Positions 3,676-40,100 of a stretch of 57,162 nucleotides of DNA are shown one piece after another; position 1 is the stretch's first letter; each line of letters opens with the position of its first letter. This DNA is from a virus (lineage: Duplodnaviria > Caudoviricetes). The stretch is taken from positions 1 through 57,162 of the IMG/VR virus record IMGVR_UViG_3300001335_000513. The stretch is one strand, 5' to 3'. The position numbers were made by a program, and so were the translations under genes. The notes beneath the pieces are model-generated. The model saw only the letters and a program-made list of their open reading frames with translations, had not been told where the DNA came from and searched no databases.

Positions 3676-3906
3676 TTTAATAATATTTAGTTAATTAATA
3701 ATTGGTAAATAAATGATGGTTTTTTATAATTTATCATGCCGTAGATTAAAAAAAAGGACTGTTATTTGCCAAAATGTCTATCATAGAGTGCCAGAAACAT
3801 ACCCATAACAAGTTATGAAAATTATCCATGAAGTAACATTAATAAAGCAAATTAACAGCCCAAGACGATAAAAATAGATGAAAATATAAGATAAATACTG
3901 AAAACA

Positions 3907-5220
3907 TTAATAATCTAAACTAATGTTAGTATTAATTTCCATCGATTTTATAAGTTCAAAAATAATACTGTTTACAAAAATTTCGTTTTTATGAGATAAA
4001 TTATTTTTGTAATATGTGTTGGCAGAAATAATTATGTTTGCTAAATCAAACTGACTATTAAAACTTTTAATATTAGAGTATAGAATAGCATTATTACGGT
4101 CAATATAAAAGTATTTTGAATCAGGTGATTTAATAGCTATTATCTTTTTAATTCTTAATTTATAATTAGAATTAATAAAAAGAGTTAAAACTTTAGTTAA
4201 ATTATTGTTTTGCTCTTCAGACAAACCAGTAATATCCAAATTTTTTGGTTTATCTTGGAAGGGATCATGAACAAAATTAAGTTCATTGTAATATTTACCA
4301 TAAAGACTTATATACAAACCAAGATTAAGATAAACACAATTAGAATTACTTGCGTAAAATCCACTGTATTCATAAGGAACAATGGTTTTTCCTATTAATG
4401 CTTCTTTCCATTCGGATAATAAATTTAATCCAGACATATTGACTTTGCTTTCAATAAACTTTGAATTTGTTGAAGCTTCAATGAAATTTTTAATAATGTT
4501 AACATCATTACATTTTTCATAAAACAAACTTAATATTGAAAGAATATCAAAATAATCAGCCAATCTGTCTTCACCAATTTTAAGTAAGTCAAATTCATAA
4601 TCGTATAGTGAAGATAAAGATTCATTATTATAGCATAATATTCCGTGTCGATAAATTCTTACGTTTCCTTCACGTGAAGAAGATAAAATTGCTCCGTATT
4701 CATTTCGGTACTTTGCGTGTGTATTGACTGAAAAATATTTATCCCAATTAGAACAAATTTCGTTTAATTCATCGTTAAGTTCAATTAAAAATGTCGTGTA
4801 ACCTTTACGAATCGGTAAAACATCTTCTTTGTTGTCACATACGTAACATGTTGAATCACCTTCGTCAATTGCATTACAATAAATCTCTCTTATAGCTTGC
4901 CATAAACTCCAATCAGCACCCATCAGAGTCGTAATGCTTGTTTCAATATCATCAATCAATATCAATTTATAATCTATGTTGCGAAAAGACTTGTCAATAG
5001 TTGAAGTATGTATGTTTTTCAGACCACTGTAAATATTAATGTTAAAATCGTTCCTGAGTAAATATGCCAAAGCATATTTGATACCTGTACCAAAATAACC
5101 AATTTTGTTTTTTACGTTTTTACCTTTAACATCCCTTTTATCAGTAATGCCAAGCAAATACAAAGCTTCTGTTTCAATTTCGCCTTTGTTTGAAATTGCT
5201 AAATATTTTTTGTTTTTCAT
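3907..5220 (-). CDS. GHKL (HATPase_c/HSP90-like) ATPase-domain protein
   Basis: IGYFGTGIKYA (G-box-like) and REIYCNAIDEG (N-box-like). Confidence 0.7.
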   Translation of the reverse strand: MKNKKYLAISNKGEIETEALYLLGITDKRDVKGKNVKNKIGYFGTGIKYALAYLLRNDFNINIYSGLKNIHTSTIDKSFRNIDYKLILIDDIETSITTLMGADWSLWQAIREIYCNAIDEGDSTCYVCDNKEDVLPIRKGYTTFLIELNDELNEICSNWDKYFSVNTHAKYRNEYGAILSSSREGNVRIYRHGILCYNNESLSSLYDYEFDLLKIGEDRLADYFDILSILSLFYEKCNDVNIIKNFIEASTNSKFIESKVNMSGLNLLSEWKEALIGKTIVPYEYSGFYASNSNCVYLNLGLYISLYGKYYNELNFVHDPFQDKPKNLDITGLSEEQNNNLTKVLTLFINSNYKLRIKKIIAIKSPDSKYFYIDRNNAILYSNIKSFNSQFDLANIIISANTYYKNNLSHKNEIFVNSIIFELIKSMEINTNISLDY

Positions 5221-5222
5221 GA

Positions 5223-5837
5223 CTATGAGTTATTTGAATTATTCTTTTTATCAAATATGAATTCTACAAAATGTACGATATATAAATACGTATTCAAATA
5301 TATTTGACATTGATTTTCACTTATATATCCTAACTGATAAAGTTTGTAGCCGAATGATATAGAAAAAATATTTACCATTCGAGTTTTGTCAAAATGATGG
5401 TTACCCATATAACTGAAATTAAAATCAAAATTATCATTAACTATATCTTTAATTAGACATAAAAAAGCATGTATTGATTTTAATGGAAAATCATCATCCG
5501 TTATGTTTTTTGTAGTATTTAATATATTCATCAATTCTTCCAAATTAATATCTTCATTACCCATAAAACTAAAACTTAATGAAAAAGAATTTCCATCAGT
5601 CTTCGATTTAAAGTAATTACTTATAAAATTTTCGAAATCACATCCATAAACTTTGAGAAAACTTATTATTTCCATAATTATAGAACTACTGTCCTCATCA
5701 AGTTCTTTTAATTTGTCCATTAAAATATTAGTAACCTCTAAAGAATTAATGTCAAAGGATTTTTGAGCAATCATTTTCATCGCTTCACTTTTTGAATACT
5801 CAGGTAATGGAATAAATACAAATTCTTTGTCTTTCAT
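5223..5837 (-). CDS. hypothetical protein
   Basis: 204-aa ORF, operonic. Confidence 0.65.
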   Translation of the reverse strand: MKDKEFVFIPLPEYSKSEAMKMIAQKSFDINSLEVTNILMDKLKELDEDSSSIIMEIISFLKVYGCDFENFISNYFKSKTDGNSFSLSFSFMGNEDINLEELMNILNTTKNITDDDFPLKSIHAFLCLIKDIVNDNFDFNFSYMGNHHFDKTRMVNIFSISFGYKLYQLGYISENQCQIYLNTYLYIVHFVEFIFDKKNNSNNS

Positions 5838-5849
5838 GACTGTATGTTT

Positions 5850-6311
5850 TTAATTATTGATTTGTAATAAGGTAATATCTTTTATAATTGTTCCGGCAAT
5901 AAGAATCATTTCACCATATCCATATCTACCAATTACTGCATTCCACAATTTACCCGACAATGTCATTTTTATCAATACGAAACAATAATTTTCTGAACAT
6001 TTATTATGCCAATTGTTAAGCCCAGAAAGTAATTTTAAAGCATCTTCTTTTTCAACAAATACAGAAGTTTTACCAAAATATTCCTTTCTTATAAAACGAC
6101 AATGGTCACTTTTGGTCAAATCTCTTGTGTTAAAATTATGATTAAAATAAGTAGTCATAGCTTTAGATACCTTAATCATTTTTACCGGACCTATTTTGTA
6201 AAGCATCCCTGTCGCTGGCGAATATAACTTACCAGTTTTTTTGTTCAGTACTGCAACCTTCCATCCAGTAAATTCTTCTTCTTCTTCAAACCTATCTATT
6301 AGTATACACAT
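5850..6311 (-). CDS. hypothetical protein
   Basis: 153-aa ORF, operonic. Confidence 0.65.
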   Translation of the reverse strand: MCILIDRFEEEEEFTGWKVAVLNKKTGKLYSPATGMLYKIGPVKMIKVSKAMTTYFNHNFNTRDLTKSDHCRFIRKEYFGKTSVFVEKEDALKLLSGLNNWHNKCSENYCFVLIKMTLSGKLWNAVIGRYGYGEMILIAGTIIKDITLLQINN

Positions 6312-6339
6312 AACTTTTATTATTTATTGGTTAAAAATG

Positions 6340-6415
6340 AAAAGGAAAAAAGAGTCCCGGAGAAGAACAAAAACCGGGACTCCGTCATGAAAAATCCCTG
6401 CTGTTATACAGGAAT
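6340..6415 (-). ncRNA. candidate antisense sRNA or 3'-UTR element ending in an intrinsic terminator
   Basis: Minus strand: 7-bp hairpin (6394-6415), TTTTTCATGAC linker, 9-bp GC stem 6352-6360/6374-6382, T tract. Confidence 0.5.
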
Positions 6416-6424
6416 ATCTTTTAA

Positions 6425-7111
6425 TCAATTCTTGTTTATTGATGATATATGTTTTAAAACTTTATCCTTAATACTTGAATCAATTTTTAAAATTGATTCA
6501 TTAGTTTCTTGTACAATCCCGTCAAGAATTACATATGTAATTTGTAGTATCAAACATTCTTTATCTGTAATTACTGAATCCCTTCGCATATATTCAAATA
6601 TATCATAAAACATCTGAAAATATAAACTCATAGATTCATTCTCAAAATTCTTGACCCGCCTTTTACCAGTAAAACTAACAAAATCTGGCTCAGTTAAGTA
6701 TTCTTCTAATACATTGGAATAACACTCTGCAATCTTACAATTTATATAGGTTGTAGGACCAATATGATTTTTCGAAAGTTCTTTTAATTTTGTAATTTCT
6801 GAATTTAAAATACCTGGTTCTGAATAATTACTAGCTATTAAAGAATTTACAAAACGTGACGTGAGTATATTCATTGTCAACAAAAAAGTATTTATGTGTG
6901 AACAAATCTTAACCAAATGTTTGTATGATGTCTCTTTAATCTTATCGTCTTTATCATCTTTGTGAAAAAAATGAAAAATTATTTTAAAATATGAATTTAT
7001 TAATTTATCCCGTATTGGTTCATCTTCACTTAATGAAGATAATTCATCCCTTAATGATGTGTAAATCCCAATCATCGATTCATACAAATCCTTTTTTAAT
7101 AACTTTTTCAT
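6425..7111 (-). CDS. hypothetical helical protein (start revised from 7201 to 7111)
   Basis: In-frame ATG 7111 lies 36 bp from a CCATCATTT motif, the same spacing as at genes starting 3675 and 9978. Confidence 0.65.
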   Translation of the reverse strand: MKKLLKKDLYESMIGIYTSLRDELSSLSEDEPIRDKLINSYFKIIFHFFHKDDKDDKIKETSYKHLVKICSHINTFLLTMNILTSRFVNSLIASNYSEPGILNSEITKLKELSKNHIGPTTYINCKIAECYSNVLEEYLTEPDFVSFTGKRRVKNFENESMSLYFQMFYDIFEYMRRDSVITDKECLILQITYVILDGIVQETNESILKIDSSIKDKVLKHISSINKN

Positions 7112-7217
7112 GACTCTTTTTTTTAAGTTTATTTTTGTTAGCAAGTAAATGATGGCCTGTCCTTGACCTTCAAACTTTTTTGTAATACTTTTGTAGTTCA
7201 TTAATATCCCTTATCCT

Positions 7218-7335
7218 GTGAACAAAAAGTACAAATATAGTGAACTAAAAATATCTAATAATAGTTCAGTTTTTCCCCATATAAAGTGTACAAAAAGTTC
7301 ACAGTTCCTGAACTCCCAGTTCATACTACGTGAAC
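7218..7335. repeat. iteron-like TGAAC/GTTCA cluster, candidate replication origin
   Basis: Seven TGAAC/GTTCA copies in both orientations within about 120 bp, just upstream of the RepL-like gene. Confidence 0.55.
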
Positions 7336-7411
7336 TAATCACTCCTGTGTATCAGTCAATTAAATACTTCCCCTCTTAATACTCTTATATAACACTTAAA
7401 AACCATAGTTT

Positions 7412-7981
7412 ATGAAACCTAAAATCCAATACAAAGATCGTCAAAGATTTCAGAAAAATCCTTTCATTAACCAATTAAAAGCTACGCTTATCAAAACAGT
7501 TAAATCCGAACAATTCGGTACTGAACAAATTATCGTTAATCAGTCTACTGGTGAATTCGAAGGATCTCCTGTCCTTATTAGAAAAAGAAAAGTAGATGCT
7601 AATAAATTTGTTAAAATGTATATTAATACTATGACCGCTTGGCTTAGCCTTTCTCCTAAAGCTCAAAAAATCCTTTACCTTATTATCCAAAATATGAAAC
7701 CTAATTCTGATATCGTTAAAATCGATCCCAATAGTCAAGACGTGAAAAACAGTACTGGACTCAATTCTAAAGTGTCTATATACGGAGGACTCGACGAGTT
7801 AATTGACCGGAATATAATAGCCAAGGCGAGGTATGTTGATCAATTTTACATAAATCCGAGTGTAATGTTTTCGGGTAACAGGATACTATTCATAGAGATG
7901 TTAGAGAAGAACGGAAGTGAGCGAAAGATGCTTTCTAAGGATTCTGACTCATCAAAGTTAGAAGAGTACGAGATGGATTAA
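7412..7981 (+). CDS. repL: RepL-like replication initiator (wHTH)
   Basis: NPF...TGE...VDANKFVKMY...IYGGLDELIDRNIIAK..FYINPSVMFSGNR pattern of RepL-type proteins. Confidence 0.75.
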   Translation: MKPKIQYKDRQRFQKNPFINQLKATLIKTVKSEQFGTEQIIVNQSTGEFEGSPVLIRKRKVDANKFVKMYINTMTAWLSLSPKAQKILYLIIQNMKPNSDIVKIDPNSQDVKNSTGLNSKVSIYGGLDELIDRNIIAKARYVDQFYINPSVMFSGNRILFIEMLEKNGSERKMLSKDSDSSKLEEYEMD

Positions 7982-8074
7982 TACTTATGAATCGGTTAGG
8001 TGAATTTAATGAACCGGTTCGGTGCATTATTTATCATTTTGAAAAAAAAAGATGGATTCAGGAAGAATATTCAT

Positions 8075-8082
8075 TATATTTG
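8075..8082 (+). promoter_or_regulatory. Bacteroidota -7 promoter element (TAnnTTTG)
   Basis: TATATTTG; points into about 70 nt of non-coding sequence ending at the terminator 8124-8156. Confidence 0.4.
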
Positions 8083-8123
8083 CAATCTTATACCTCTCAT
8101 CATCTTTTGTCAAAGCCCGATGT

Positions 8124-8156
8124 AAAAAAAAGCCCCTCTTGGATGAGGGGCTTTTT
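8124..8156. terminator. bidirectional intrinsic terminator
   Basis: A8-GCCCCTC-ttggat-GAGGGGC-T5 between convergent genes. Confidence 0.85.
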
Positions 8157-8159
8157 GGT

Positions 8160-8801
8160 TTAGAAGTTGTCATCGACAGCTTTCGCTTTGATGACTTCAA
8201 CTTTACCGTTGAGGATGCTGGTTGAGCCAGTATATCCCCACTTGTTGAACGAGCCGATGTCGGGGGGTGCTTGTCGGTTCATATAAGTGCGGTTTTTAAC
8301 AACAGCACTGAACCGGCAACCGGGCAGGTCGTTGATTTTTGCACCTTTTACGGGTAGGGCTTCCCAAACGCCAGGTTCTTTCTCTCTTTCGCACGAAGCG
8401 AACATAGAGTTAAGAATGTTCAGGGCAGCCTTTTCCTTAACAGGTGAAATCAGCCGACGTTTTGTTTCAACGTCGACAGCGTATCCTGCCGGATGGCTCG
8501 AACGGAAATACCCGGTAGTATCGGACAGTTCATCGAATTTCACAAATCCAACGATGTTGAATCTGTGAAATGCGAGTTGTCCGTTTTCAGCACGGATACC
8601 GAGTAACAGTTGCTCGTGTTCGTCGGTGTAGTCAACACCGGCTTCATCGAGTTCTGCTTGCGTCTTGCGTTCACCTTCGAGGTTTTTTATCCGGTCGCTT
8701 TCCAGCACCTTAACTACCTCAATGGTGAAGTTGTGACGCCCGTCATCCAGGGTGCCATAGTTGGTCACCGGGATGTCGGATTTAAACTTCGTCAAGTTCA
8801 T
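8160..8801 (-). CDS. possible ssDNA-binding (OB-fold-like) protein
   Basis: LDDGRHNFTIE N-terminus and acidic-aromatic C-terminus (DDNF); function inferred; visibly GC-richer than flanks. Confidence 0.5.
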   Translation of the reverse strand: MNLTKFKSDIPVTNYGTLDDGRHNFTIEVVKVLESDRIKNLEGERKTQAELDEAGVDYTDEHEQLLLGIRAENGQLAFHRFNIVGFVKFDELSDTTGYFRSSHPAGYAVDVETKRRLISPVKEKAALNILNSMFASCEREKEPGVWEALPVKGAKINDLPGCRFSAVVKNRTYMNRQAPPDIGSFNKWGYTGSTSILNGKVEVIKAKAVDDNF

Positions 8802-8823
8802 AGCTTATGAATTTGAAGTTTTG

Positions 8824-8849
8824 TGGCAATATTGCCAAGTAAATGATGG
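8824..8849 (-). promoter_or_regulatory. CCATCATTT motif plus TGGCAATATTGCCA palindrome
   Basis: Near-identical copies at 9519-9545 and 9997-10022. Confidence 0.75.
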
Positions 8850-9190
8850 AGAAAACTATCAAATACTGTGAAAATGATGGTTTTTTCAAACCACACCAAC
8901 CACTGTCGGGCGTAGCCCGATAGTGTGCATGAGTGAATCCATGAAGCATTGTTGTGCAAAACAACAAGGCTTTATGGATGAGCGATTGCATGATGGTGTA
9001 TACATTAGTGGCTGTGGTGAATGATTTATGTGCTGTGGTACCCTGGTATCAAAATGTAAAAAAAATGCATTCTATGCAAAAGGGTTCATGAATTAGATAC
9101 ATAAATAAGGTGAATTGGATTTGTGAGAAAAGAATTAAAAAAAAACCTTGCGTTGTGCAAGGTTTTACATAATCATACGATGTTTCAGGG

Positions 9191-9499
9191 TTAGCTGGAT
9201 TTTGACTCATCTTCAGCAAAAGGCTGTACAGGGTCATAAAGAATTGCTGCACATTCTTCACGAGTTTGGATATCACCAAACATTTTTTCACAAAGAATAC
9301 TTAACCTTTCTTTTGGAGAAAGTAATTCAGTGTTCGATGTGTCGTGTTTTTCAACCTTCTTTTTCATAGGAGTATTTTCCGAATCATTGTAATCATGCAG
9401 AATTTCATGAAACAGTTGTTTTACGACTTCAGCTTCATTAACAGTCATAATGAAACGGATTTTTGAAATCCCATACCCTTTGTCTAAACGTTTTTGCAT
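9191..9499 (-). CDS. hypothetical early protein
   Basis: ORF preceded by the conserved leader motif. Confidence 0.65.
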   Translation of the reverse strand: MQKRLDKGYGISKIRFIMTVNEAEVVKQLFHEILHDYNDSENTPMKKKVEKHDTSNTELLSPKERLSILCEKMFGDIQTREECAAILYDPVQPFAEDESKSS

Positions 9500-9518
9500 A
9501 ACTTTAAAGTTTATATTG

Positions 9519-9545
9519 TTGGCAATATTACCAAGTAAATGATGG
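9519..9545 (-). promoter_or_regulatory. CCATCATTT motif plus palindrome (one variant base)
   Basis: CCATCATTTACTTGGTAATATTGCCAA on the minus strand. Confidence 0.75.
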
Positions 9546-9595
9546 TCTGAATTGAATGTGTGAATCTGTAAATGTATGAATTAAGAAAAAGAAAA

Positions 9596-9625
9596 GAAAA
9601 AAAATCCCTGTCAATGACAGGGATT
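9596..9625 (-). terminator. intrinsic terminator
   Basis: AATCCCTGTC/GACAGGGATT stem with a T tract on minus, after the stop at 9640. Confidence 0.8.
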
Positions 9626-9639
9626 GCTATGAAGTTGAA

Positions 9640-9978
9640 TTATGCAAGAGCAAATTCAACGAATGCAGGATGAGCAATGTGAATCTCAACTTCTTCATTT
9701 GAAGAGTCAAGGACGGCAGTGGCAACAGCTTCATTGCTAATCGAAGATTGTTCAATTAAGACGTTGATGAAGTCTCTTTCCTTTTTAGGGATTACAACCG
9801 GATATCCCAGATGCTTCATCTCTTCTATGAGATTGCCAGGTGATAATGTTTTGGCAACAAAGTTTGGACTGTCTTTAGGCTCTTCAGGAAGTTTTGCTCC
9901 GATTATGAAGTGCCCTCTTTTCTTGTCAACTATTAAATGCAATATGCATTCAACATTGTTAATCAAAAATTTATTCAT
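9640..9978 (-). CDS. hypothetical early protein
   Basis: ORF flanked by the leader motif and a terminator. Confidence 0.7.
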   Translation of the reverse strand: MNKFLINNVECILHLIVDKKRGHFIIGAKLPEEPKDSPNFVAKTLSPGNLIEEMKHLGYPVVIPKKERDFINVLIEQSSISNEAVATAVLDSSNEEVEIHIAHPAFVEFALA

Positions 9979-9996
9979 AGCTTTAAAGTTTAATTA

Positions 9997-10022
9997 TGGC
10001 AATATTGCCAAGTTAATGATGG
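9997..10022 (-). promoter_or_regulatory. CCATCATTA motif plus palindrome
   Basis: CCATCATTAACTTGGCAATATTGCCA on the minus strand. Confidence 0.75.
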
Positions 10023-10024
10023 TG

Positions 10025-10165
10025 TTATGGCATAGAACGTTCAAATTCTTCCATAACTGAAATACATTCACGGCAATAACCAAAAATGCGAATGCTGCTA
10101 ATGTCTGATGAATTGTGGTATTCGTTACCACAACAAGTACATAATTCATTGTCTTGTTCTTTCAT
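10025..10165 (-). CDS. 46-aa putative Zn-ribbon microprotein (not in ORF track)
   Basis: MKEQDNELCTCCGNEYHNSSDISSIRIFGYCRECISVMEEFERSMP; AAAGCT-ATG context. Confidence 0.65.
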   Translation of the reverse strand: MKEQDNELCTCCGNEYHNSSDISSIRIFGYCRECISVMEEFERSMP

Positions 10166-10208
10166 AGCTTTGTTGTTTAATGGTTAATAGAAATCAAAAA
10201 AAAAAGGG

Positions 10209-10313
10209 TCAATCCCTTTTTCTTTTTGATAAACCAAGTATGTCTGCCCAACCTGCTATCCCAAACACAACAAGTATTATCCAGACTATTACTTCAAATA
10301 TTGTCCATTCCAT
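10209..10313 (-). CDS. 34-aa single-TM microprotein (not in ORF track)
   Basis: MEWTIFEVIVWIILVVFGIAGWADILGLSKRKRD; CCATCATAT motif at 10337-10345 upstream; hairpin and T tract at the stop. Confidence 0.65.
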   Translation of the reverse strand: MEWTIFEVIVWIILVVFGIAGWADILGLSKRKRD

Positions 10314-10351
10314 AGCATATGATTTTTAAGTTAATAATATGATGGCAAATG

Positions 10352-10648
10352 TTATTTGCAATACTTTGCAATTAACTCCACAAGTATATCACCATGACAA
10401 GGTAATGGTTTTCACCAACACCCAAGCACTTTGCCTTTCAGTTCACATAAATGCTTTAATAAATATTTGCCTTCACCATTGGTAATCCATTCACGGTATG
10501 CTTCAATAGCCTCATGTCTGCTACCCACAACATATTTAGCAAGTGTTTTACCATCTTGTTTATGTGTGAATGGATTACCCCATTTACTCGGTCTTCCGAT
10601 ATACACATCATACGGTGCTTTCTTGCAATGTACAACCATGTTTTTCAT
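10352..10648 (-). CDS. DUF4326 protein with in-frame TGA at 10412-10414 (recoded, pseudogene or sequence error)
   Basis: VVHCKK..YDVYIGRPSKWGNPF...LKGKVLGCW*KPLPCHGDIL; the family motif continues past the TGA to TAA at 10352. Confidence 0.85.
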
Positions 10649-10705
10649 AGTATAAGGTTTTAAGTTAGTAAAATGATGGTTTGTGAAGATAAAAAAAAGA
10701 GAGGT

Positions 10706-10990
10706 TTAACCCTCTCTTAAGTAAGTCTTCAGCACCCTGACAATATACTCCGTCAGGGTACTGTATGGCTTTCGTGTATTTTGGTTCATCTGCCATGAAC
10801 CTTGGCCGTTATGGCAGCAGTCAAAATACACAGATTTCTCTGTTTTGTACTTATAGATATTGAATGAATATTCTACAGCCCCACATGGGCTGTAGAATGC
10901 CTTTTCGGCCACATAATATTTGTGGCCGAAAATAATGATAACGGCTCTTAACTCGTTATCATTGGTCAACCTAACGTTAACTACTTTCAT
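10706..10990 (-). CDS. hypothetical early protein
   Basis: ORF with motif at 11048-11056 upstream and an AAGAGAGG/CCTCTCTT terminator at its end. Confidence 0.7.
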   Translation of the reverse strand: MKVVNVRLTNDNELRAVIIIFGHKYYVAEKAFYSPCGAVEYSFNIYKYKTEKSVYFDCCHNGQGSWQMNQNTRKPYSTLTEYIVRVLKTYLREG

Positions 10991-11057
10991 TTATATTACC
11001 ACTGCCCTGTGGATTTGTTTTGGCATCTGGCTCGCCATTCATCAATAAGATGATGGT

Positions 11058-11082
11058 AAAAAAAGGGTGCCGAAGCACCCTT
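11058..11082 (-). terminator. intrinsic terminator with UUCG tetraloop
   Basis: AAGGGTGC-TTCG-GCACCC-T7 on the minus strand. Confidence 0.9.
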
Positions 11083-11085
11083 AAC

Positions 11086-11424
11086 TTAGTTAAGACAATA
11101 GTTGTCATCCACCATACCCGTTTCTTCTGGTAATAAGATAGGGTTTATCCTGTAGATGTTAAATAAATGTGTCACATTATCTATTCCTGCTTGTCCAAGA
11201 ATAGTATTGGATATGACACCAAGGCCCTGCAAGAAAGAAATTAATTCTTTTTTGCAAGACGGGATGGTAGTCGTTGATGCCATACCAGGCTTGACAATTG
11301 GCAAGCACTCTGTATAATCGAGTACCTTGCCATTACTTATCAATATAACCTGGTACATGCCTGACGGCTGCCCGACAAAGTTTATCCCTGATAACACTTT
11401 GCCATTATAGATAAAATTATTCAT
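11086..11424 (-). CDS. hypothetical early protein, first leftward gene
   Basis: ORF with motif at 11432-11440, only 8 bp from the ATG. Confidence 0.7.
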   Translation of the reverse strand: MNNFIYNGKVLSGINFVGQPSGMYQVILISNGKVLDYTECLPIVKPGMASTTTIPSCKKELISFLQGLGVISNTILGQAGIDNVTHLFNIYRINPILLPEETGMVDDNYCLN

Positions 11425-11542
11425 AGCAATAAAATGATGGCCCCCCTGGAAGGAAACCTATAAGGCTTTCCATATAGAAGCAGATGGCCTTATGGATTCA
11501 TAAATTTCAAAATTTTTTTTTGATTTTTTTTTAGGTATAAGA

Positions 11543-11962: not shown

Positions 11963-12393
11963 GTTTATTTGGCACAAGTTTCAGGATAGAAGAATTTGTA
12001 CCACCGGAGACGGTAGAACGTTGGGGATTAGGACGAAGTATATGGTTTGTACGGCCACACGTAGTATTATTTTGTTCACACATAAAGGAGACTTTTGGTG
12101 GTATATTAACGATAAACAATTGGTATTGGGGAGGTGTATTCAAGTACAGTGGATATCGGCCACCAGATTGCGATGTAGGTGCTAAAGAATCTTCACACAA
12201 GCGGAGTGATGCGGTAGATATGCGAAGTACAGGAATAGGAGTAGAAGAATTGAGTGATTACATAGAGAGGAAATATTCGTTATTGCACAGTCGTTATTTA
12301 CTAACGGGAATAGAATTAGGGACGAGTAGTTGGACACATGTTGATTTTCGATGCACTGGATTGGATTATTTACATAAAATACCTTATCAATGA
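11959..12393 (+). CDS. peptidase M15-like endolysin (start likely ATG 11959)
   Basis: SGYRPP..VGAKESSH..SDAVD and WTHVDFR Zn-peptidase motifs. Confidence 0.8.
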   Translation: MSLFGTSFRIEEFVPPETVERWGLGRSIWFVRPHVVLFCSHIKETFGGILTINNWYWGGVFKYSGYRPPDCDVGAKESSHKRSDAVDMRSTGIGVEELSDYIERKYSLLHSRYLLTGIELGTSSWTHVDFRCTGLDYLHKIPYQ

Positions 12394-13091
12394 TAAATAA
12401 AATAAAGTTAATAGGATTATTTATATTGTTTGTATTAATGAGCGGTTTGTACATTCAGGAATGTATCAAGCGTCAGCATGTTGACGGATTAAATATTGCT
12501 CAGATGGAACAATTTGAATTAGAGCGGAATTATTTAATATCGAAGTATGACAGTTGTTTATTGAGTAAGAGTACAATTGATACGATACGAGACACGATAT
12601 TTAAATATTTAGGTTACAAATACATTAAGAAGGAATTGACGGCAGTAGATTCGATAAAGATACACGAATATTTTTTATTAAGTGATGACGGAACAGACAC
12701 GGTTGATATTTATGAGAAGGAATATGATGGAATACTGGAGAGTGAGGATTTCGAATTAGTATGGTATGCGAGGGTATTTGGTGAATTGGAAGAGTTAAGT
12801 TTTCCACATTACCGTGTATACAAGGAAAAGATCATAGAGAATTGGGTTATCAACAATCCGGCACCGCCATCAGAGGAAAAGATAGAATACAAATATAGGC
12901 GAGGTATTTATTTAGAAGGGTCTTTAGGGAATAGTATGGAGAGTTGGAAGAGTTGGGAGAGTATAGATGGTGGAATAGGATATTTAACCAGACGAGGGAT
13001 AAGTTTTGGGATTAACTACGAATATTTTGTATTTAAAGATATTAGAGGACAATTTTTACGATTACGATTAAGATATTACTTGGGCAAGTAG
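12390..13091 (+). CDS. membrane-anchored, spanin-like lysis accessory protein
   Basis: N-terminal TM, amphipathic beta-strand C-terminus, coupled to the endolysin. Confidence 0.5.
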   Translation: MINKIKLIGLFILFVLMSGLYIQECIKRQHVDGLNIAQMEQFELERNYLISKYDSCLLSKSTIDTIRDTIFKYLGYKYIKKELTAVDSIKIHEYFLLSDDGTDTVDIYEKEYDGILESEDFELVWYARVFGELEELSFPHYRVYKEKIIENWVINNPAPPSEEKIEYKYRRGIYLEGSLGNSMESWKSWESIDGGIGYLTRRGISFGINYEYFVFKDIRGQFLRLRLRYYLGK

Positions 13092-13174
13092 GGTCCTTGC
13101 CAAGTGTTTTTCATAATTATTTTTTTTGGGTTAATCACCGGTTTGGGGCTTAAAAGACCAAGCCGGTGTTTTTT
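13083..13174 (+). ncRNA. candidate antisense sRNA or 3'-UTR element with terminator
   Basis: GGCAAG/CTTGCC hairpin, TGTTTTTCATAATT linker, 11-bp stem 13136-13168, T6. Confidence 0.45.
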
Positions 13175-13277
13175 CATATTTGAAAAACCCATCATTTTAT
13201 CACTTAATGTTTAAATATTAGTACAAATATGTTAATAAATTTTGAACTTGATTATTGTAATTTTTAGAAATAATAAT

Positions 13278-13285
13278 TACATTTG
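13278..13285 (+). promoter_or_regulatory. Bacteroidota -7 promoter element
   Basis: TACATTTG about 7 nt before the hairpin at 13293. Confidence 0.6.
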
Positions 13286-13291
13286 AAAATA

Positions 13292-13378
13292 TTTCCGGCT
13301 AAATTTAGTTGGAAGGTTGTTCATAGCTTTAATTACCTTATGTGGCCGGAGTTAAGGAATGCGCTCCGGCCATTTTTT
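13292..13378 (+). ncRNA. candidate ~87-nt antisense sRNA
   Basis: Promoter element, 9-bp 5' hairpin with two G-U pairs, GTTCATAGCTTTAA linker, 9-bp terminator stem, T6. Confidence 0.6.
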
Positions 13379-13391
13379 AAAAAAGATGTTT

Positions 13392-13667
13392 ATGTCAGAT
13401 AAATATATAATAAAGAATGAACATTTACTGATGGATGTTGCCAGGTACAAAATTGGATGGATGTTTATATCAGTATGTAACAGTGGTATGGGTCGTATGA
13501 TATTGCGTAATTCGTTAGAAATGGTCAGGAGTGCGAATTACGAAGCGATGTTATTGTTATTTGATGAAAATGAGAGGAGTCTTTCAGGTTACATTTACAT
13601 TTTTGACAGTGCTGAGCAATACGAATGGTTTATGAAAGAAACAGATTATGTTGAATGGGAAATATAA
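13392..13667 (+). CDS. hypothetical protein (start revised; ATG 13359 lies inside a terminator loop)
   Basis: In-frame ATGs at 13386 and 13392. Confidence 0.55.
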   Translation: MSDKYIIKNEHLLMDVARYKIGWMFISVCNSGMGRMILRNSLEMVRSANYEAMLLLFDENERSLSGYIYIFDSAEQYEWFMKETDYVEWEI

Positions 13668-13692
13668 TTATTAACTTTTAAAAAATGACATT

Positions 13693-14565
13693 ATGAAAGT
13701 AGAACATTTCAAGATTGTTGATGATGGACGAGGTGGTATCATTGTCAATGGAACAGATGTTAAAGAGAAAGAATCAGGCATACATGCCATTGTTGATTTT
13801 TCTTTGACATTTCGCACACCGATTCCGAATGATCTTTTTGACCACATTCAAAAATTGAAGTTATTTTTTCTTCAGTTGACAGGACATTGGGAAGATGGTT
13901 TATCAAAATACCTGGAGATGGATTTTTCTTTGAAGGACCAGGAGAATGACGAACGTTATTTACGGGCCTATTGGTTGTATGAGAATACAGTTATTACAGG
14001 GTTAAAGGCGAAGGATGATTATTACATCATAACCGGTAAGATTACGAATCGTTATGGTCAGACAATTGGTATGAGTTCACCAAAGGTTACATATGATACG
14101 GCTTATTCTGGTTTTTCTCATATGGTTTCTTTGGCAAACGAACTTGTTGGTAATGTAGAAAAATTTGTCAATGACCGGAAATTGCGAATGATGGAACCCC
14201 GGCAATATGTTTTGGATTTGTTCAAAGATGCAGAGCCACATGATTTGGAATCGATTCGCAAGATGAACGATGAACAGGTTCGTGAAGTACTTCTTAGTGA
14301 ATTGGAACGTAAAAATGCCATTGTTATTGGTGTTAATGTTCCTGATAATAAAGAAGAGCCAAAAGATGAAATTTTCGTAAAGAAAGATGAAGGGGATGTT
14401 GAAACTAAGGAAAAAGTTGAAGAAACTGAAAAGAGTAAAACTTCGTCAAAGAAAGATCCATTAAATAAAAGTTCAAAACCTGCTTCAAAAGCACCCAAGA
14501 ATGTTCCAGAGGTTAAGAAGCAAAAGGTAAAGACTGCTGAAGAAATTGCTGCAGATGACTTTTAA
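13693..14565 (+). CDS. hypothetical protein with charged low-complexity C-terminus
   Basis: 290-aa ORF ending ADDF. Confidence 0.7.
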   Translation: MKVEHFKIVDDGRGGIIVNGTDVKEKESGIHAIVDFSLTFRTPIPNDLFDHIQKLKLFFLQLTGHWEDGLSKYLEMDFSLKDQENDERYLRAYWLYENTVITGLKAKDDYYIITGKITNRYGQTIGMSSPKVTYDTAYSGFSHMVSLANELVGNVEKFVNDRKLRMMEPRQYVLDLFKDAEPHDLESIRKMNDEQVREVLLSELERKNAIVIGVNVPDNKEEPKDEIFVKKDEGDVETKEKVEETEKSKTSSKKDPLNKSSKPASKAPKNVPEVKKQKVKTAEEIAADDF

Positions 14566-14586
14566 ATTACAATTGATTTGATTGAC

Positions 14587-14620
14587 AAGGACAGAATTTG
14601 ATACATCAAGTTCTGTCCTT
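14587..14620 (+). terminator. 15-bp hairpin, likely terminator or processing site
   Basis: AAGGACAGAATTTGA-taca-TCAAGTTCTGTCCTT followed by a T-rich tract. Confidence 0.65.
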
Positions 14621-14659
14621 TATTATTTAGGGGAAAAAATAATATTAAAAAAAAATAAA

Positions 14660-15490
14660 ATGTTTTTAACAGATACATCAATAGAGTTCATTGAAAAAGG
14701 ACACAAATATATTTTAAAAAAATATCCTGATGTTGTTCCATTGAGTACAACAAGAATGATAAAAAGTTTTTGTGAACCTTTTGACAGAGAAAAGATTTCT
14801 TATTTTGTTGCCAGGGCAAACTTGCGAAAAGAGTTAAAACAAAGAAGAGAAGTTACTGAACAAGAAATATTAAAAGAAAAAAAGAAGGTATTAAAACTTT
14901 GGGATTCAAAAGCTGATATAAGTCAGAAACATGGGAATTACATTCACGATATAATGGATTCTGGTTTTCGTGGTATGCCTGTACCATACCATATGTCAGA
15001 AATTTTTAATGAGTTATGGATTTATTTCAGCAAATATGTTCAAATAAGTAGTGAAGCGAATATTTGTTTGTATGAACATTTCATAACTGGCCGGATAGAT
15101 TATTTTTGTTACAGGCAGAAAAATTCTAATGTTGTAGATTTGAAAGATATTAAGACAAATCTTTTCAATAAGATAAGATTTGATTCTACACTGATTAAAG
15201 AAGGTAGGATAAAGCATTATGACAGATATATGCTTGAACCATTGGATTATCTTGAGGATTGTGATTATAACAAAATGGTTCTTCAATTAAGCACATATGC
15301 TTACATATTGGAAAGGCAATACGGTTTACGAATAGGTTCATTGGAGATTATACATATTGATACAGATAGTGATATATTGATTGAAACTGACAAAATGCCT
15401 AATTTTGTAATCAACAGATATCCGGTTGCATATATGCGAGATGCTGTAATAAAAATGATTGAAGCAACGACAGGTTCTGGATATTTTTAA
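14660..15490 (+). CDS. PD-(D/E)XK nuclease (start likely ATG 14660)
   Basis: HGNYIH, SSE, GRID, DIKTN and LQLSTYAYILE motifs. Confidence 0.8.
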   Translation: MFLTDTSIEFIEKGHKYILKKYPDVVPLSTTRMIKSFCEPFDREKISYFVARANLRKELKQRREVTEQEILKEKKKVLKLWDSKADISQKHGNYIHDIMDSGFRGMPVPYHMSEIFNELWIYFSKYVQISSEANICLYEHFITGRIDYFCYRQKNSNVVDLKDIKTNLFNKIRFDSTLIKEGRIKHYDRYMLEPLDYLEDCDYNKMVLQLSTYAYILERQYGLRIGSLEIIHIDTDSDILIETDKMPNFVINRYPVAYMRDAVIKMIEATTGSGYF

Positions 15491-37126: not shown

Positions 37127-40100
37127 ATGCCTGAAGAAATCCAAAAAAATATTCATAAGGAATTAAAAGAAGCAGGAGCGAAAAAAGTTCCTGTACATAA
37201 AGATGGCTTACCTTCTTTTACCTTACCTGCAAATATCGACCCTTTTGACTTATTATTAACAGATGAGGAAAAACTGTTAAAAGAAGAAAAGAATAAAGTT
37301 AAAGAAAACACAGTTGTTCCAAAACCATTTATGCTTGAAAAGCAAGATGGAGATACTCAAGATAAAAAAACAAAAGGAATAGATTCAGAATCTTTAAATA
37401 TTCCTGATCCTATTGATTTAAAAAATAATGAAGTTACACCCGTTTCTAAAGTTGAATCACCAAATATTAAGGGATTCAATGAAAAGTATGCTTTTCTTAT
37501 GGACCAGGAAAAGGTTGATAAGTATCTGGCTGGAAAGATAAAAGATGATGAACTTCCTGAATATCTACATTATAAATTTGATGAAAGTAATGCTACTCCT
37601 GAAGAGAAAAAATACATAAAAGAAAACCCTAAAAATTTTTATACTCAATTAACTTTTACAGGAGATATAGTTCCTCATCCTATAATGAACAGTCATTTGG
37701 TTGAACCTGGGAAAAAAATAGCAAATATAGATGAAGGAACTGCTCCATCAGAAAAACTTGAGGAACGAAGACGCCAAGATAAATACAAAGAAGTATTAAG
37801 TGAAATAATGCCATTTATTGCGAATGAAAATAATTTACTTGATAATTTTTATCAGGATTTAGTAACTGATGACCAATTTATTGAATATAAGGCAAGGTAT
37901 GATGAACACAGTAATATATTAAAATTATATAATGAAGCAAAAACAAAACAAAAAAACAATGAATGGCCATTTAATGAAGAAGCTGAACCAAAAGATAGAA
38001 TTGAAGAAGAAAGAAATTTATTTTTAGGTTTTGGTCGTGGACCGAGAGATGTGGAAAAACAACAAGGAACTATATATGGTATAATGCAAGATTACCAAAA
38101 CAAAAAAATAGATGAATATGTAGAAGATAATTTTTCTGGTATACACACTGAATTTCGTGAACAAATTAAAAATTATTATAAAGAAACAGTTGATGCCAAA
38201 CAAGAAGGTGAAGTTGTTTTACAAAAAACACAAGAAAAACTACAAGAATTAGGTATAAATATTTCTGAAGAAGACATTGATAATATTGCCTTAGAATTAA
38301 ATAATGCTACAACTGAATTAAATACACTTCAAACAAAATTATCTGAAGAAATTAATGAAATACATATTCAAAATGAAGATGAATATCTTTCCTTATCTGA
38401 AAAAATTGAAAACGAATATCGTGGTCAATTATCTTCTTTAAAAAGTTGGGCAGAACAACCTGATATTACAGACCAATCTTATAAAATAAGAGTTGCAGCT
38501 TATAATGATTTGGTAGAAAAATATAACAATGAACATAAACAAGCATACAACAAGTATCTTGAAAATCATAATAAAAATGTTGTAGAAAAATCAAAAGAAT
38601 ATGAAGAATTTCTTAATAAAAAACAAGAAGAATTATTAAAAGACATTTTGGAAAACAGCAATTTTTATTTTGATGAAAAGTCAGATGAATTAAAACTTAA
38701 TGAGGATATAATAAAACAAGTTGAAAAAATATATGAAGAAACATACAAAGAACATAATAAAGAAACACTTTTAAATAATTTAGCGAAGTACAACAGACAA
38801 AATTGGTGGGCAAGAAAAGCCTCAGCTTGGAAAGCTGGATGGGCTGATTTTTGGAGTAGTATGTCTGGTGGTGTTTCATGGATACTTTCGAAAGAAATTG
38901 GGCAAAAATGGGAAGAAATATCAGAAGGTTATGGATGGCTTGGATTTAAAGACCTTGAAATATATTTAAAAAGAAAGGCAAATGAAAAGATTGATATGCA
39001 AACAATGGTAAGAAAGCTTCCACGAGAACATTATGAAGAACTTGGATTTACCGATGAAGAAATAGCAAGATTTGAAGACCATAATTTAGTTGGAACTTTT
39101 TCATACAGAGATTTGCTTACTGAATCATTTTGGACAACAGAATTTATAAGAATGCTTCCTTTGACCACATCTATGCTTGTACCAGCACTTGCTGGTGGTG
39201 TATTAGGACAAAGAATAGGTGGTATTGTTTCAAAAAGATTTATGGGAAACTTATTAAGTAAATCAGGTAAGGTTTATTTAAAGTCTTCTATGGCTGGGAT
39301 AGTTGGTGCAGTTTCTTCAAGACCTTTTGAAAACTTTTTGGAAGCTGGGGGAGCCTGGGTAGAAACATTAGAAAATGGTGGTACATTAAAAGAGGCTGCT
39401 GCCAATGCATCATCTGTTTACCGGTCTAACTGGAACTTGATTGGTTTAGATGCGTTACAAATAGGTTTTGCTTTTACACCATTAAGGGGTAGATTTTTTA
39501 AACTTGTCGGAGTAATGGCTTTTGAAGGTGCCTCAAACAATTTTGAAGAAAGATACCAAGAATGGTTAGTTCACAGACGATTCAATCCTCTTGTAACATT
39601 TTCAGAATATGCAACAAGTCCGGAAGGAAACATGGTTGGAATTTTAGGTACTTTAAATGCATGGGGTTTTATGGTTCCTAATGCAGCCGGAATAGTTTCC
39701 ACTAATGAGAAGAAAGCTAAAAGGAAAATGCAAGCAAATACCCTGGTTAGGCTATTTGAAATTGGGCAAGATTTAACAAAAAGAAAGAAAGAACTTACAC
39801 AAATATTTGAACATTATAAAGCTACAGGCATAATTACCTTCGAAGAATATACCGAAGCACTAAAAATGCTTGAGAAGACTCATAACATTTTGAAGACCAT
39901 CCAGGGAATGGATGATTTTGAATTGAGAGCAGCACAGTTAATGGAGTTGTCAGCAGAAGAAACAGAATTACTTACAAGAATTGCAAATGCAAAAGATGGT
40001 ACAATTTCAGAAGCATTAAAAGAATCACACAAAGATTTAAAAAAGCAAATCAAAGATATTATTTCTGGAAAAGCTCCAGGATACTTTATCAATGGGGTTC

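Follow-up and report, generated by a model that had tools for sequence, protein, structure and literature searches.

A candidate leader-derived antisense RNA unit complementary to start codons of leftward genes in a freshwater phage

RESULTS

A short hairpin-linker-terminator unit precedes the structural genes

In the genome sequence of a freshwater phage (57,162 nt analysed, hereafter the window), a short hairpin-linker-terminator unit lies on the + strand at 13278–13378, in the region 5′ of the particle-building (structural) genes, and its linker is complementary to the start regions of several minus-strand genes. Statistically, the match is real, and it is specific to a single class of genes. 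Judged from the sequence, a short + strand RNA with a predicted length of ~88 nt is probably made from the unit. Our tentative reading is that the structural module has this unit as its promoter-proximal leader, ended by a terminator, and that the short product may in addition work in trans as an antisense RNA; such a role at the start codons of early genes is plausible, and we put it forward with reserve. The first-pass annotation had described the unit as a candidate sRNA. Of that description, the anatomy and the linker match held up, whereas no conservation or covariation was found in 58 related loci and the unit is not free-standing.

Promoter box, 5′ hairpin, mostly open linker and strong terminator form an anatomy that fits a short + strand RNA. 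Box, hairpin, linker and terminator with its T6 all lie where they had been placed initially:

13278–13285, + strand: TACATTTG, a Bacteroidota-type −7 box; predicted RNA 5′ end at ~13289–13291
13293–13314, + strand: hairpin 1, 9 bp with two G-U pairs and the loop AATT; −9.8/−10.0 kcal/mol on the + strand
13319–13332, + strand: linker (seed) GTTCATAGCTTTAA, inside the single-stranded stretch 13315–13341
13343–13378, + strand: terminator 3, a perfect 9-bp stem with a 12-nt loop and T6 at 13373–13378

Hairpin 1, with the arms TTCCGGCTA (13293–13301) and TAGTTGGAA (13306–13314), starts 2–4 nt past the predicted 5′ end. It favours the + strand, as had been proposed, folding at −10.0 kcal/mol there compared with −3.9 kcal/mol on the minus strand. 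The stem of terminator 3 (arms TGGCCGGAG/CTCCGGCCA) was lengthened by RNAfold to 11 bp, at −19.8 kcal/mol. As a whole, the unit reached −30.5 kcal/mol on the + strand (z = −3.6; as good in 0 of 200 shuffles), against −21.1 kcal/mol on the minus strand. The linker had been called unpaired, which is mostly so (mean unpaired probability of 0.66 across 13319–13332), but it is not fully open. Its seed is located exactly in the unpaired stretch between the two hairpins.

The linker is complementary to the start regions of one class of genes

All four antisense matches given in the first-pass annotation (13, 12, 11 and 11 nt) are exact. Together with further sites predicted from the sequence, the putative targets of the linker are:

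9974–9986, − strand: start of the 112-aa gene 9640–9978; 13 nt exact, 16 bp with one G-U, −19.2 kcal/mol
2723–2734, − strand: start of the 154-aa gene 2262–2726; 12 nt exact, −15.0 kcal/mol
8796–8806, − strand: start of the 213-aa gene 8160–8801; 11 nt exact, −16.2 kcal/mol
10161–10171, − strand: start of the 46-aa ORF 10025–10165; 11 nt exact, −15.3 kcal/mol
6155–6174, − strand: strongest predicted site, 18/20 nt, −24.5 kcal/mol; in-frame internal ATG 6158 of the gene 5850–6311, in a start-like context
11419–11427, − strand: weaker target, start of the 112-aa gene 11086–11424; 8 nt exact, gapped duplex of −17.9 kcal/mol
9497–9507, − strand: weaker target, start of the 102-aa gene 9191–9499; TTAAAGTTATG, pairs via one G-U, −12.2 kcal/mol

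A homologue search bearing on whether gene 5850–6311 truly starts at 6158 or at 6311 found no homologue, and the putative target proteins belong to no Pfam or PHROG family.

Among 109,594 14-mers outside the start windows, only those at 13318 and 13319, both in the linker, contained a complement of at least 11 nt to four start regions. Predicted duplexes of −15 kcal/mol or stronger numbered five, all with minus-strand genes, compared with a mean of 0.37 in shuffled sequences; five were reached in none of 600 shuffles and in 4 of 400 natural 27-mers. With the cut-off relaxed to −12 kcal/mol, 11 of 51 were counted, which only matched the highest value in 300 shuffles. The motif AAAGCTATG occurs five times in the window, always on the minus strand, versus 0.59 times expected, and five copies were reached in 0 of 100 shuffles. 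Measured against random matches, the control named in the first-pass annotation, the complementarity of the linker therefore exceeds chance, but the targets have one motif in common, so that the four or five matches do not count as independent.

This common motif marks a class of genes. Using our own ORF calls as the gene list, we found AAG[CT]TATG at six of the 20 starts on the minus strand but at none of the 29 on the plus strand (Fisher's P = 0.0028). The eight minus-strand copies, all in one orientation, comprise six gene starts, one internal ATG and one copy in the unit. Translation initiation in Bacteroidota proceeds largely without Shine–Dalgarno (SD) pairing. A host of this kind, assumed from the outset, fits the window, where SD-like 4-mers were present at 3 of 49 gene starts; among GenBank phages, the closest are crAss-like ones from Bacteroidales. 

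Two other relationships, of the linker and of the whole unit, were considered and set aside. One was a role of the linker as a half-site of the AGTTCA-N7-TGAACT operators at 7228–7336; the unit has no partner half-site. Extended homology between the unit and the early-gene cassettes is limited to GCCA plus a 13-nt core.

Terminators and promoter-like motifs surround the unit

The following + strand features flank the unit:

13083–13110, + strand: terminator 1, stem GGCAAG/CTTGCC followed by a T run; overlaps the stop codon of gene 12390–13091
13137–13175, + strand: terminator 2, 14-nt arms that are 86% complementary, followed by T6; a back-up insulating the unit from upstream transcription
13189–13196, + strand: CCATCATT, a phage-specific promoter-like motif and its sole + strand copy; would give a ~177-nt RNA ending at 13378
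13386–13667, + strand: 93-aa gene, the first gene 3′ of the unit; its ATG lies 8 nt past the end of terminator 3

The 93-aa frame is also open from an ATG at 13359, within the loop of terminator 3. It is followed by the genes for a 290-aa protein (13693–14565), an exonuclease, a 145-aa protein and the terminase; the portal and major capsid genes likewise lie 3′ of the unit. As terminator 3 ends so close to the first gene of this module, the unit is also the leader of the structural-module operon. Moreover, no TANNTTTG motif is present on the + strand between 13378 and 15101, so that the 93-aa gene needs read-through of the abutting terminator. All promoter-like motifs of the intergenic region are found in the AT-rich stretch between terminators 1 and 2 on one side and terminator 3 on the other. 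With these terminators as brackets, terminator 3 is sensible only for transcripts that start inside the stretch. A search for tRNA and tmRNA genes found none. No variants were seen in the contigs of four DNA runs; runs X3 and X4 have no contig over ~13002–13476, a gap of low-depth contigs that is not evidence.

Bacteroidota promoters follow a −33/−7 spacing rule, by which ATTG at 13254–13257, 20 nt 5′ of TACATTTG, is a possible −33 element. Across the window, TANNTTTG is not enriched (98 found versus 97.9 expected). On the + strand, the TAnnTTTG box has four copies in ~929 nt of plus-block intergenic DNA versus ~0.8 expected, its frequency in the whole window being that of chance. In 4 of 16 related loci, an exact TAnnTTTG lies 33–43 nt upstream of the homologue of the 290-aa gene (background 0.08 per 130 nt).

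The phage-type motif CCATCATT occurs 13 times in the window compared with 3.8 expected. Nine minus-strand copies fall between 3712 and 11440; by our reading, eight of these are upstream of minus-strand genes, often just past terminators, and one (5393–5400) is intragenic. The copies at 13189, 10679 and 10345 have the extended match CCATCATTTTAyyACTTAA in common. Clustering of CCATCATT was looked for in five relatives and not found. Since this motif is shared with the putative targets and also stands upstream of the unit, at 13189, a timing in which late transcription shuts off early genes is uncertain: if the CCATCATT promoter drives the RNA, the RNA would be made along with its targets, not later.

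A proposed route from leader transcript to start-codon pairing

From these features we infer RNA production, pairing in vivo, translational repression and timing along the following lines. Host RNA polymerase would start at ~13289–13291 from the TAnnTTTG box, and the phage-type CCATCATT promoter may add a start near 13202. The RNA would form the 5′ hairpin, keep GUUCAUAGCUUUAA open and mostly halt at 13373–13378, giving a product of ~88 nt and possibly also one of ~177 nt. Its open stretch could then pair with (U)UAAAG(C/U)UAUGAA where some of the leftward, presumably early, genes start, namely at 9978, 8801, 2726 and 10165, more weakly at 11424 and 9499, and in addition around the internal AUG at 6158. 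Such duplexes at start codons would block initiation in a host that does without SD pairing. Read-through or antitermination at terminator 3, on the other hand, would produce the mRNA of the 93-aa gene and, at least partly, of the later genes. The host of this phage is not known to have Hfq.

A bolder version would make the unit a master antisense switch, whose 14-nt seed reads a start-codon 'address', UUAAAGCUAUGAA, of a whole temporal class for joint shut-off, with the same terminator gating the late genes. We consider this unlikely; if true, a single element of 88 nt would link the silencing of early genes to the onset of late ones, in a host lineage without SD pairing and Hfq.

Related loci and RNA families

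A covariance search in related genomes had been suggested in the first-pass annotation. Run with a model of the unit over 58 related loci (638,981 bases including the window), it found no homologue, no match outside the window having E < 1. Three loci that carry a homologue of the 93-aa gene (L003, L005 and L007) have no comparable leader: coding sequence occupies the leader position in L003, and L005 and L007 are without the hairpin-linker-terminator layout, with a possible terminator directly upstream of the gene in L007. In L003, a match of 9 nt, AGCTTTAAT, falls within probable coding sequence and was taken as chance. The nearest relative by the 290-aa protein is L002 (53% identity), whose contig is cut 58 nt upstream of its gene; at the equivalent place, ATGAAC stands right behind a hairpin, and the minus-strand frame is open for 10 codons to the contig end. 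Two further contigs carry related proteins: one of 19,219 nt has P0004 and P0006 (terminase 74% identical, 290-aa protein 51%), and one of 1,292 nt has P0002 (94% identical). In distant relatives, a terminator followed by a TAnnTTTG-type box is found just upstream of the corresponding gene module.

Close relatives were not found by megablast of 12000–15000 against GenBank phages, by tblastn with the 233-aa and 290-aa proteins, by scanning viral contigs singly with the 290-aa, 233-aa and terminase proteins, or by comparing the 290-aa family alignment with viral contigs and genome contigs. The exact pattern of the linker plus GGCCGG gave no match, and a degenerate pattern for the 93-aa gene retrieved 15 loci, of which the L003 contig alone was related. 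Scanning the genomes of four relatives (G002, G003, G005 and G006) for multi-target antisense sequences yielded generic T-rich CAT strings only.

Nowhere in the window did any of the 4227 Rfam models reach its gathering score. For the unit, SdsR/RyeB (RF00111) scored best, with 25.1 bits over 13271–13378 (+), below its gathering score of 38, and we rejected this assignment; SdsR/RyeB is an enterobacterial family, and the alignment rests on the terminator and general layout. Membership in FopS (RF04319) was rejected as well (27.8 bits versus a gathering score of 56), this hit being at the neighbouring 13104–13178, the stretch of terminator 2.

Leader, minus-strand start or chance

The unit may be no more than a leader or attenuator, since terminator 3 directly adjoins the start of the first structural-module gene. 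It would then act in cis only, gating transcription into the 93-aa and structural genes as lambda pR′-6S-tR′ does, with the short RNA as a by-product and a complementarity without function. The 8-nt distance from terminator 3 to the ATG at 13386 and the lack of a + strand TANNTTTG in 13378–15101 speak for such a leader, as does the start of the same module directly past a terminator and promoter box in distant relatives. An attenuator-type layout is also predicted, in that arm 1 (13293–13301) can pair with the 5′ arm of the terminator (13343–13351) over nine contiguous pairs, and the nascent RNA 13291–13362 folds best in an alternative structure of −17.7 kcal/mol, compared with −9.8 kcal/mol for hairpin 1. 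The full-length RNA, however, strongly favours hairpin 1 plus terminator (−29.6 kcal/mol), and the cross-pairing may be a by-product of the self-complementary CCGG in both stems, which counts against an attenuator. No sensing ligand was identified, nor was an antiterminator seen among the PHROG and Pfam hits, although most phage proteins have no family match. A purely cis-acting leader does not account for the linker being the single best antisense match to starts in the window, or for the 18/20 match at 6155–6174, and we regard it as somewhat unlikely.

The motif TTAAAGCTATGAAC could instead belong to the minus strand, as the start of a real 15-aa mini-gene or as what remains of a leftward gene, or of the 5′ cassette of an early gene, that has been lost; that it lies antisense within a + strand leader would then be incidental. 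A translated 15-aa ORF had been raised as an alternative in the first-pass annotation, and the ORF exists:

13277–13324, − strand: ORF of 15 codons, opening at motif TTAAAGCTATGAAC

Orientation and motif are the same as at six real gene starts, as a start-like element would give, and a 15-codon ORF follows. The ATGAAC behind the hairpin of L002, with its minus-strand frame open for 10 codons to the contig end, agrees with this, and on the + strand the intergenic region also holds an early-type promoter motif with a vestigial ORF of 4 codons behind it. Read on the minus strand, the unit (hairpin ending in GCCA, ~19 nt, ATG) resembles the early cassettes (palindrome TTGGCAATATTGCCA, 20–26 nt, ATG) in layout. 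Their similarity, however, ends sharply outside the 13-nt core, unlike that of a decaying duplicate. The minus strand of 13325–13726 contains neither CCATCAT nor TANNTTTG and thus no promoter-like motif; hairpin 1 on that strand has two C-A mismatches and only −3.9 kcal/mol, whereas the perfect stem with T6 is built for the + strand. Furthermore, the short minus-strand frames of the window (15 aa) and of L003 (12 aa, TTG start) are unrelated. We regard a minus-strand origin of the motif as improbable.

That AT-rich intergenic DNA happens to hold the complement of a common start context, with terminator 3 as a third back-up, is more improbable still: the genome has 32% GC, five other exact 13-mers of the same 206-nt intergenic query recur in the window by chance, TANNTTTG has chance frequency and ATGAA is the commonest gene start, so that any TTCAT matches many starts, but nothing else among 109,594 14-mers equals the linker, its strong-duplex count was reached in none of 600 shuffles, AAAGCTATG has five copies against 0.59 expected, the match sits precisely in the open stretch that separates the two hairpins, and a back-up would be needless 200 nt past two terminators and downstream of promoter-like motifs.

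Comparison with known regulators

The reading that we tentatively prefer, a leader whose short product may also act in trans, has parallels among phage regulators. The small operon-leader RNAs c4 (P1/P7) and CI RNA (P4) silence phage genes through brief stretches of complementarity in or close to ribosome-binding regions. They target the transcripts of the operon from which they come and provide immunity in temperate elements; in the case of the unit, several distinct transcription units of the opposite strand would be targeted. T4 RegA turns off many early mRNAs via sequences around their start codons; it is a protein, whereas the recogniser in the unit would be an RNA. The antisense regulator c4 is named in a 2025 review of phage-derived sRNAs, in which a term search found neither 'Bacteroid' nor 'crAss' (PMC12197685).

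A further parallel in mode of action is offered by GibS and FopS of Bacteroides; each has a sigma-ABfr promoter, a terminator and a single-stranded seed, and prevents initiation beside the start codon (PMC11697453). The unit is like them in its putative TAnnTTTG-type promoter box, single-stranded seed and Rho-independent terminator. In a host without SD pairing, their seed binds next to the start codons of several mRNAs (PMC11697453). In the unit, the complementarity between seed and starts is above chance, and its match to start codons agrees, by analogy, with the action of Bacteroides sRNAs at these positions. It differs in that it is phage-encoded, has no FopS match itself and carries its seed internally between two hairpins, not at the 5′ end.

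For the position of the unit, StxS of Shiga-toxin phages offers a precedent, an early-terminated late-promoter transcript that acts as an sRNA (PMC7547250), as does lambda 6S, another sRNA of this origin, with one target in the lambda early operon by RIL-seq (bioRxiv 10.1101/2024.10.31.621285). In both, a promoter before the late genes is directly followed by a terminator, giving a short RNA, while read-through gives late mRNA (PMC7547250; bioRxiv 10.1101/2024.10.31.621285); terminator 3 (13343–13378) is similarly placed between the box at 13278 and the ATG at 13386. Unlike 6S and StxS, to which it has no sequence or Rfam relation, the unit has no Q-like antiterminator to go with it among the PHROG and Pfam hits, and its proposed action would be directed at the start codons of one class of genes of the phage itself.

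Little is known about the timing of gene expression in crAss-like and other Bacteroidota phages. Full-text literature searches found no case of such an RNA in them. If true, the proposed antisense leader would be the first RNA switch between gene classes in a phage of this kind. One crAss-like phage produces non-coding RNAs from its intergenic regions in abundance, their function being unknown (bioRxiv 10.1101/2020.03.07.982082). The proposed role would also make a shared start-codon context a regulatory address where initiation proceeds without SD pairing, and would extend the idea of a late-antitermination by-product as a regulator past the lambdoid phages. Seed and targets lie within one 57-kb sequence, and simple reporters suffice for testing. 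Should the antisense reading fail, the class-specific start context AAG[CT]TATG and the CCATCATT motif would still represent the regulatory grammar of this phage.

A candidate short RNA in front of the structural genes

The window is an entire viral record of 57,162 bases (completeness rating ∼75%), and its phage occurs in DNA runs from aquatic and freshwater samples. Genes up to 11424 are small, lie nearly all on the minus strand and have scarce family matches, the exceptions being a RuvC-like resolvase and a DUF4326 protein. Plus-strand genes begin at 11567 with an endolysin-like gene and two unknown genes, the last ending at 13091; after an intergenic gap of 294 nt they continue with a 93-aa gene at 13386, a 290-aa gene, an exonuclease, a 145-aa gene, terminase, portal, major capsid protein and tail genes. 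In GenBank, crAss-like phages of Bacteroidales come closest, with a terminase identity of just 21–24%, and a Bacteroidota host would fit both the GC content of 32% and the rarity of SD-like 4-mers, present upstream of 3 of 49 gene starts. Further along, 37127–53959 is one open frame of 5,610 codons whose sole PHROG match, at residues 2092–2379, is phrog_21376 (unknown function). The gap contains the following features:

13083–13110, plus strand: terminator 1, closing the upstream operon
13137–13175, plus strand: terminator 2, closing the upstream operon
13189–13196, plus strand: CCATCATT, its only plus-strand copy
13278–13285, plus strand: TACATTTG, a TAnnTTTG box
13293–13314, plus strand: hairpin 1, with two G-U pairs (−10.0 kcal/mol on the plus strand, −3.9 on the minus strand)
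13319–13332, plus strand: linker GTTCATAGCTTTAA
3′ end of the unit, plus strand: terminator 3, a perfect 9-bp stem (11 bp in the fold, −19.8 kcal/mol) followed by T6

Re-reading the sequence, we found every element of the unit where the first-pass annotation had placed it, including the 9-bp terminator with T6. Folding bore out its statements that the G-U pairs of hairpin 1 favour the plus strand and that the linker is unpaired (mean unpaired probability 0.66). As a whole, the unit folds at −30.5 kcal/mol on the plus strand (z −3.6) and at −21.1 kcal/mol on the minus strand, and the four DNA runs with this region are identical wherever they cover it. A short plus-strand RNA ending at 13374–13378 is likely to exist, since a strong terminator lies downstream of two other terminators and both promoter-like motifs, and since the fold is biased to the plus strand, with hairpin 1 located at the predicted 5′ end of the RNA.

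Putative promoter elements and the leader of the structural-gene operon

CCATCATT, with its extended form aCCATCATTTtACTT, has 13 copies in the window, where 3.8 would be expected. The minus strand carries nine of them from 3712 to 11440; by our reading, eight of these are upstream of minus-strand genes, often immediately after terminators, and one (5393–5400) is inside a gene. The extended sequence CCATCATTTTAyyACTTAA is common to the plus-strand copy at 13189 and those at 10679 and 10345. CCATCATT is probably a phage-specific promoter element; transcription would start no more than a few bases away, because the 11440 copy ends 8 nt before an ATG. Clustering of CCATCATT was absent in five relatives. 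Before genes 8801, 9978 and 9499 (named by their minus-strand start coordinates), a palindrome, TGGCAATATTGCCA twice and the variant TGGTAATATTGCCA once (8824–8837, 9997–10010 and 9520–9533), lies directly downstream of CCATCATT and 20–26 nt before the ATG, a putative promoter/operator/start cassette in repeated form. At 7228–7336, in the divergent region of genes 6425–7201 (minus) and 7412–7981 (plus), a 19-bp inverted repeat (AGTTCA-N7-TGAACT) occurs three times, in what looks like the operator array of a genetic switch.

TAnnTTTG occurs at chance frequency across the window as a whole; in the ∼929 nt of intergenic DNA of the plus-strand block, four plus-strand copies (11543, 13278, 35034 and 53990) compare with ∼0.8 expected. 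Searches of GenBank phages and of viral and genome contigs by nucleotide, protein and pattern found no close relatives. Terminase alignment gathered 58 related loci (28–63% identity over the best segment), many of which conserve the order 290-aa protein, exonuclease, 145-aa protein and terminase. In these distant relatives, a terminator is followed by a TAnnTTTG or near-TAnnTTTG box ∼33–43 nt before the ATG of the 290-aa homologue; of 16 distinct loci, 4 have the exact box, for which the background rate is 0.08 per 130 nt. The recurrence of this layout, together with the similar continuation of the box in one locus (L056, TATCTTTGAAAATATTT; window equivalent, TACATTTGAAAATATTT), supports the 13278 box as the promoter of the structural-gene module. 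In eight loci (L019, L021, L022, L026, L028, L029, L038 and L056), the 290-aa homologue is preceded in turn by a small gene rich in lysine, an intrinsic terminator and the exact or near-exact box, which partly overlaps the terminator T run. Two terminase homologues, P0028 and P0041, are ∼1,050–1,080 aa long and have precomputed Pfam hits to PF14528 and PF14890, intein or homing-endonuclease domains that would suggest intein-bearing terminases.

Terminator 3 stops 8 nt short of the ATG at 13386, and between the unit and 15101 the plus strand lacks another TAnnTTTG box; the 93-aa gene would therefore depend on read-through, and the unit, from its position, is a leader besides possibly being an sRNA gene. 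Arm 1 of hairpin 1 (UUCCGGCUA) can form nine contiguous pairs with the 5′ arm of the terminator (UGGCCGGAG). This helix is the best predicted fold of the nascent RNA 13291–13362 (−17.7 kcal/mol), whereas hairpin 1 plus terminator is favoured in the complete RNA (−29.6 kcal/mol). The alternative helices could represent an attenuator layout, or the cross-pairing could be incidental, because both stems hold self-complementary CCGG. A unit that works purely in cis, as leader or attenuator, would suit this position and these helices; given the antisense matches of the linker, we regard a purely cis-acting role as slightly less probable than one in trans. In the related loci with a 93-aa homologue (L003, L005 and L007), no hairpin-linker-terminator unit precedes that gene. 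A 20-codon plus-strand ORF (13340–13402) runs across terminator 3, and an ATG at 13359, within the loop of that terminator, likewise opens into the frame of the 93-aa gene; if ribosomes passed through the hairpin, termination could be affected.

Complementarity to the start regions of leftward genes

The linker had been described as antisense to the starts of four minus-strand genes, and all four matches (9978, 2726, 8801 and 10165; 13, 12, 11 and 11 nt) proved exact. AAAGCTATG has five copies in the window (0.59 expected), every one on the minus strand. When every 14-mer of both strands was compared with 49 gene starts (windows from −20 to +15), only 2 of the 109,594 14-mers outside start windows had complements of at least 11 nt to four starts, both covering the linker; the only two with such complements to three starts were adjacent linker windows. 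The segment 13315–13341 is predicted to form five duplexes of −15 kcal/mol or below, all with minus-strand genes (9978, −19.2; 11424, −17.9; 8801, −16.2; 10165, −15.3; 2726, −15.0 kcal/mol).

The targets carry one common motif, so the matches are not independent. Of 20 minus-strand starts, 6 have AAG[CT]TATG, and none of 29 plus-strand starts does (Fisher p 0.0028), as counted on our own ORF calls with two starts hand-picked. The motif has eight minus-strand copies in the window: one at each of these six starts, one at ATG 6158, which is internal and in frame in gene 5850–6311, and one in the unit itself. The top predicted duplex (6155–6174, −24.5 kcal/mol, 18 of 20 nt) covers ATG 6158. Translation suggests 6311 as the true start of that gene, whose protein yielded no homologues to decide between 6158 and 6311; with its full start-like context, ATG 6158 may initiate translation internally or serve as a regulatory site. 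The two terminators upstream of the unit both have GTGTTTTT(T)CATA at their ends, a sequence antisense to gene starts of the ATGAAAAACAC type.

The copy in the unit could itself be a minus-strand start or its relic. In L002, the related locus nearest by 290-aa protein (53% identity), the sequence stops 58 nt upstream of that gene; these 58 nt contain a different hairpin and then GGTTCATATC at the place of GTTGTTCATAGC in the window, without a terminator, and the minus strand reads ATGAAC with a frame open up to the contig end. What is conserved here could equally be an anti-start segment or a minus-strand start; with the plus-strand bias of the fold, we consider a start or relic improbable. 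Chance is the least probable explanation: none of 600 shuffled seeds reached five duplexes at −15 kcal/mol (mean 0.37, maximum 3), even though 4 of 400 natural 27-mers drawn from the window did, and the count at a looser cut-off of −12 kcal/mol (11 of 51) just equals the shuffle maximum. A lone 13-nt match would carry little weight, as the gap sequence is rich in A and T and the 206-nt query has five other 13-mers with exact copies in other parts of the window.

Comparison with known regulatory RNAs

The first-pass annotation had interpreted the unit as a phage sRNA antisense to the start codons of minus-strand early genes. Anatomy, strand bias and class-specific complementarity partly support this interpretation; a covariance model of the unit found no match in the 58 related loci, and the unit is also an operon leader. 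In the proposed mechanism, the seed of the short plus-strand RNA would pair in trans with the start codons of leftward genes. We hold such a role to be plausible, if tentatively, because the seed is unpaired and fits the consensus start context of one gene class, and because Bacteroides sRNAs likewise pair through an unpaired seed at start codons (excerpt of PMC11697453). Short transcripts from lambdoid late promoters also regulate: StxS is terminated just past such a promoter (excerpt of PMC7547250), and lambda 6S had one lambda early-operon target in RIL-seq (excerpt of bioRxiv 10.1101/2024.10.31.621285). Furthermore, a crAss-like phage makes abundant intergenic RNAs, their role unknown, and has its middle and late genes transcribed by the host polymerase (excerpt of bioRxiv 10.1101/2020.03.07.982082). 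Neither full-text literature searches nor a term search of PMC12197685 turned up a phage trans-antisense RNA described for this phage group or host phylum; if real, the RNA would be of a kind already known and new for both.

In architecture, the unit resembles lambda 6S and StxS as well as the Bacteroides sRNAs GibS and FopS. By sequence, it belongs to no described family; an Rfam scan of the entire window returned no model at its threshold, and the unit's top score was 25.1 bits for SdsR (gathering score 38). A full-length subthreshold match to FopS (27.8 bits; gathering score 56) concerns not the unit but the neighbouring stretch 13104–13178, which leaves no space for a promoter and has GUGUUUUUCAU and GGUUAAU in common with the Bacteroidetes FopS model.
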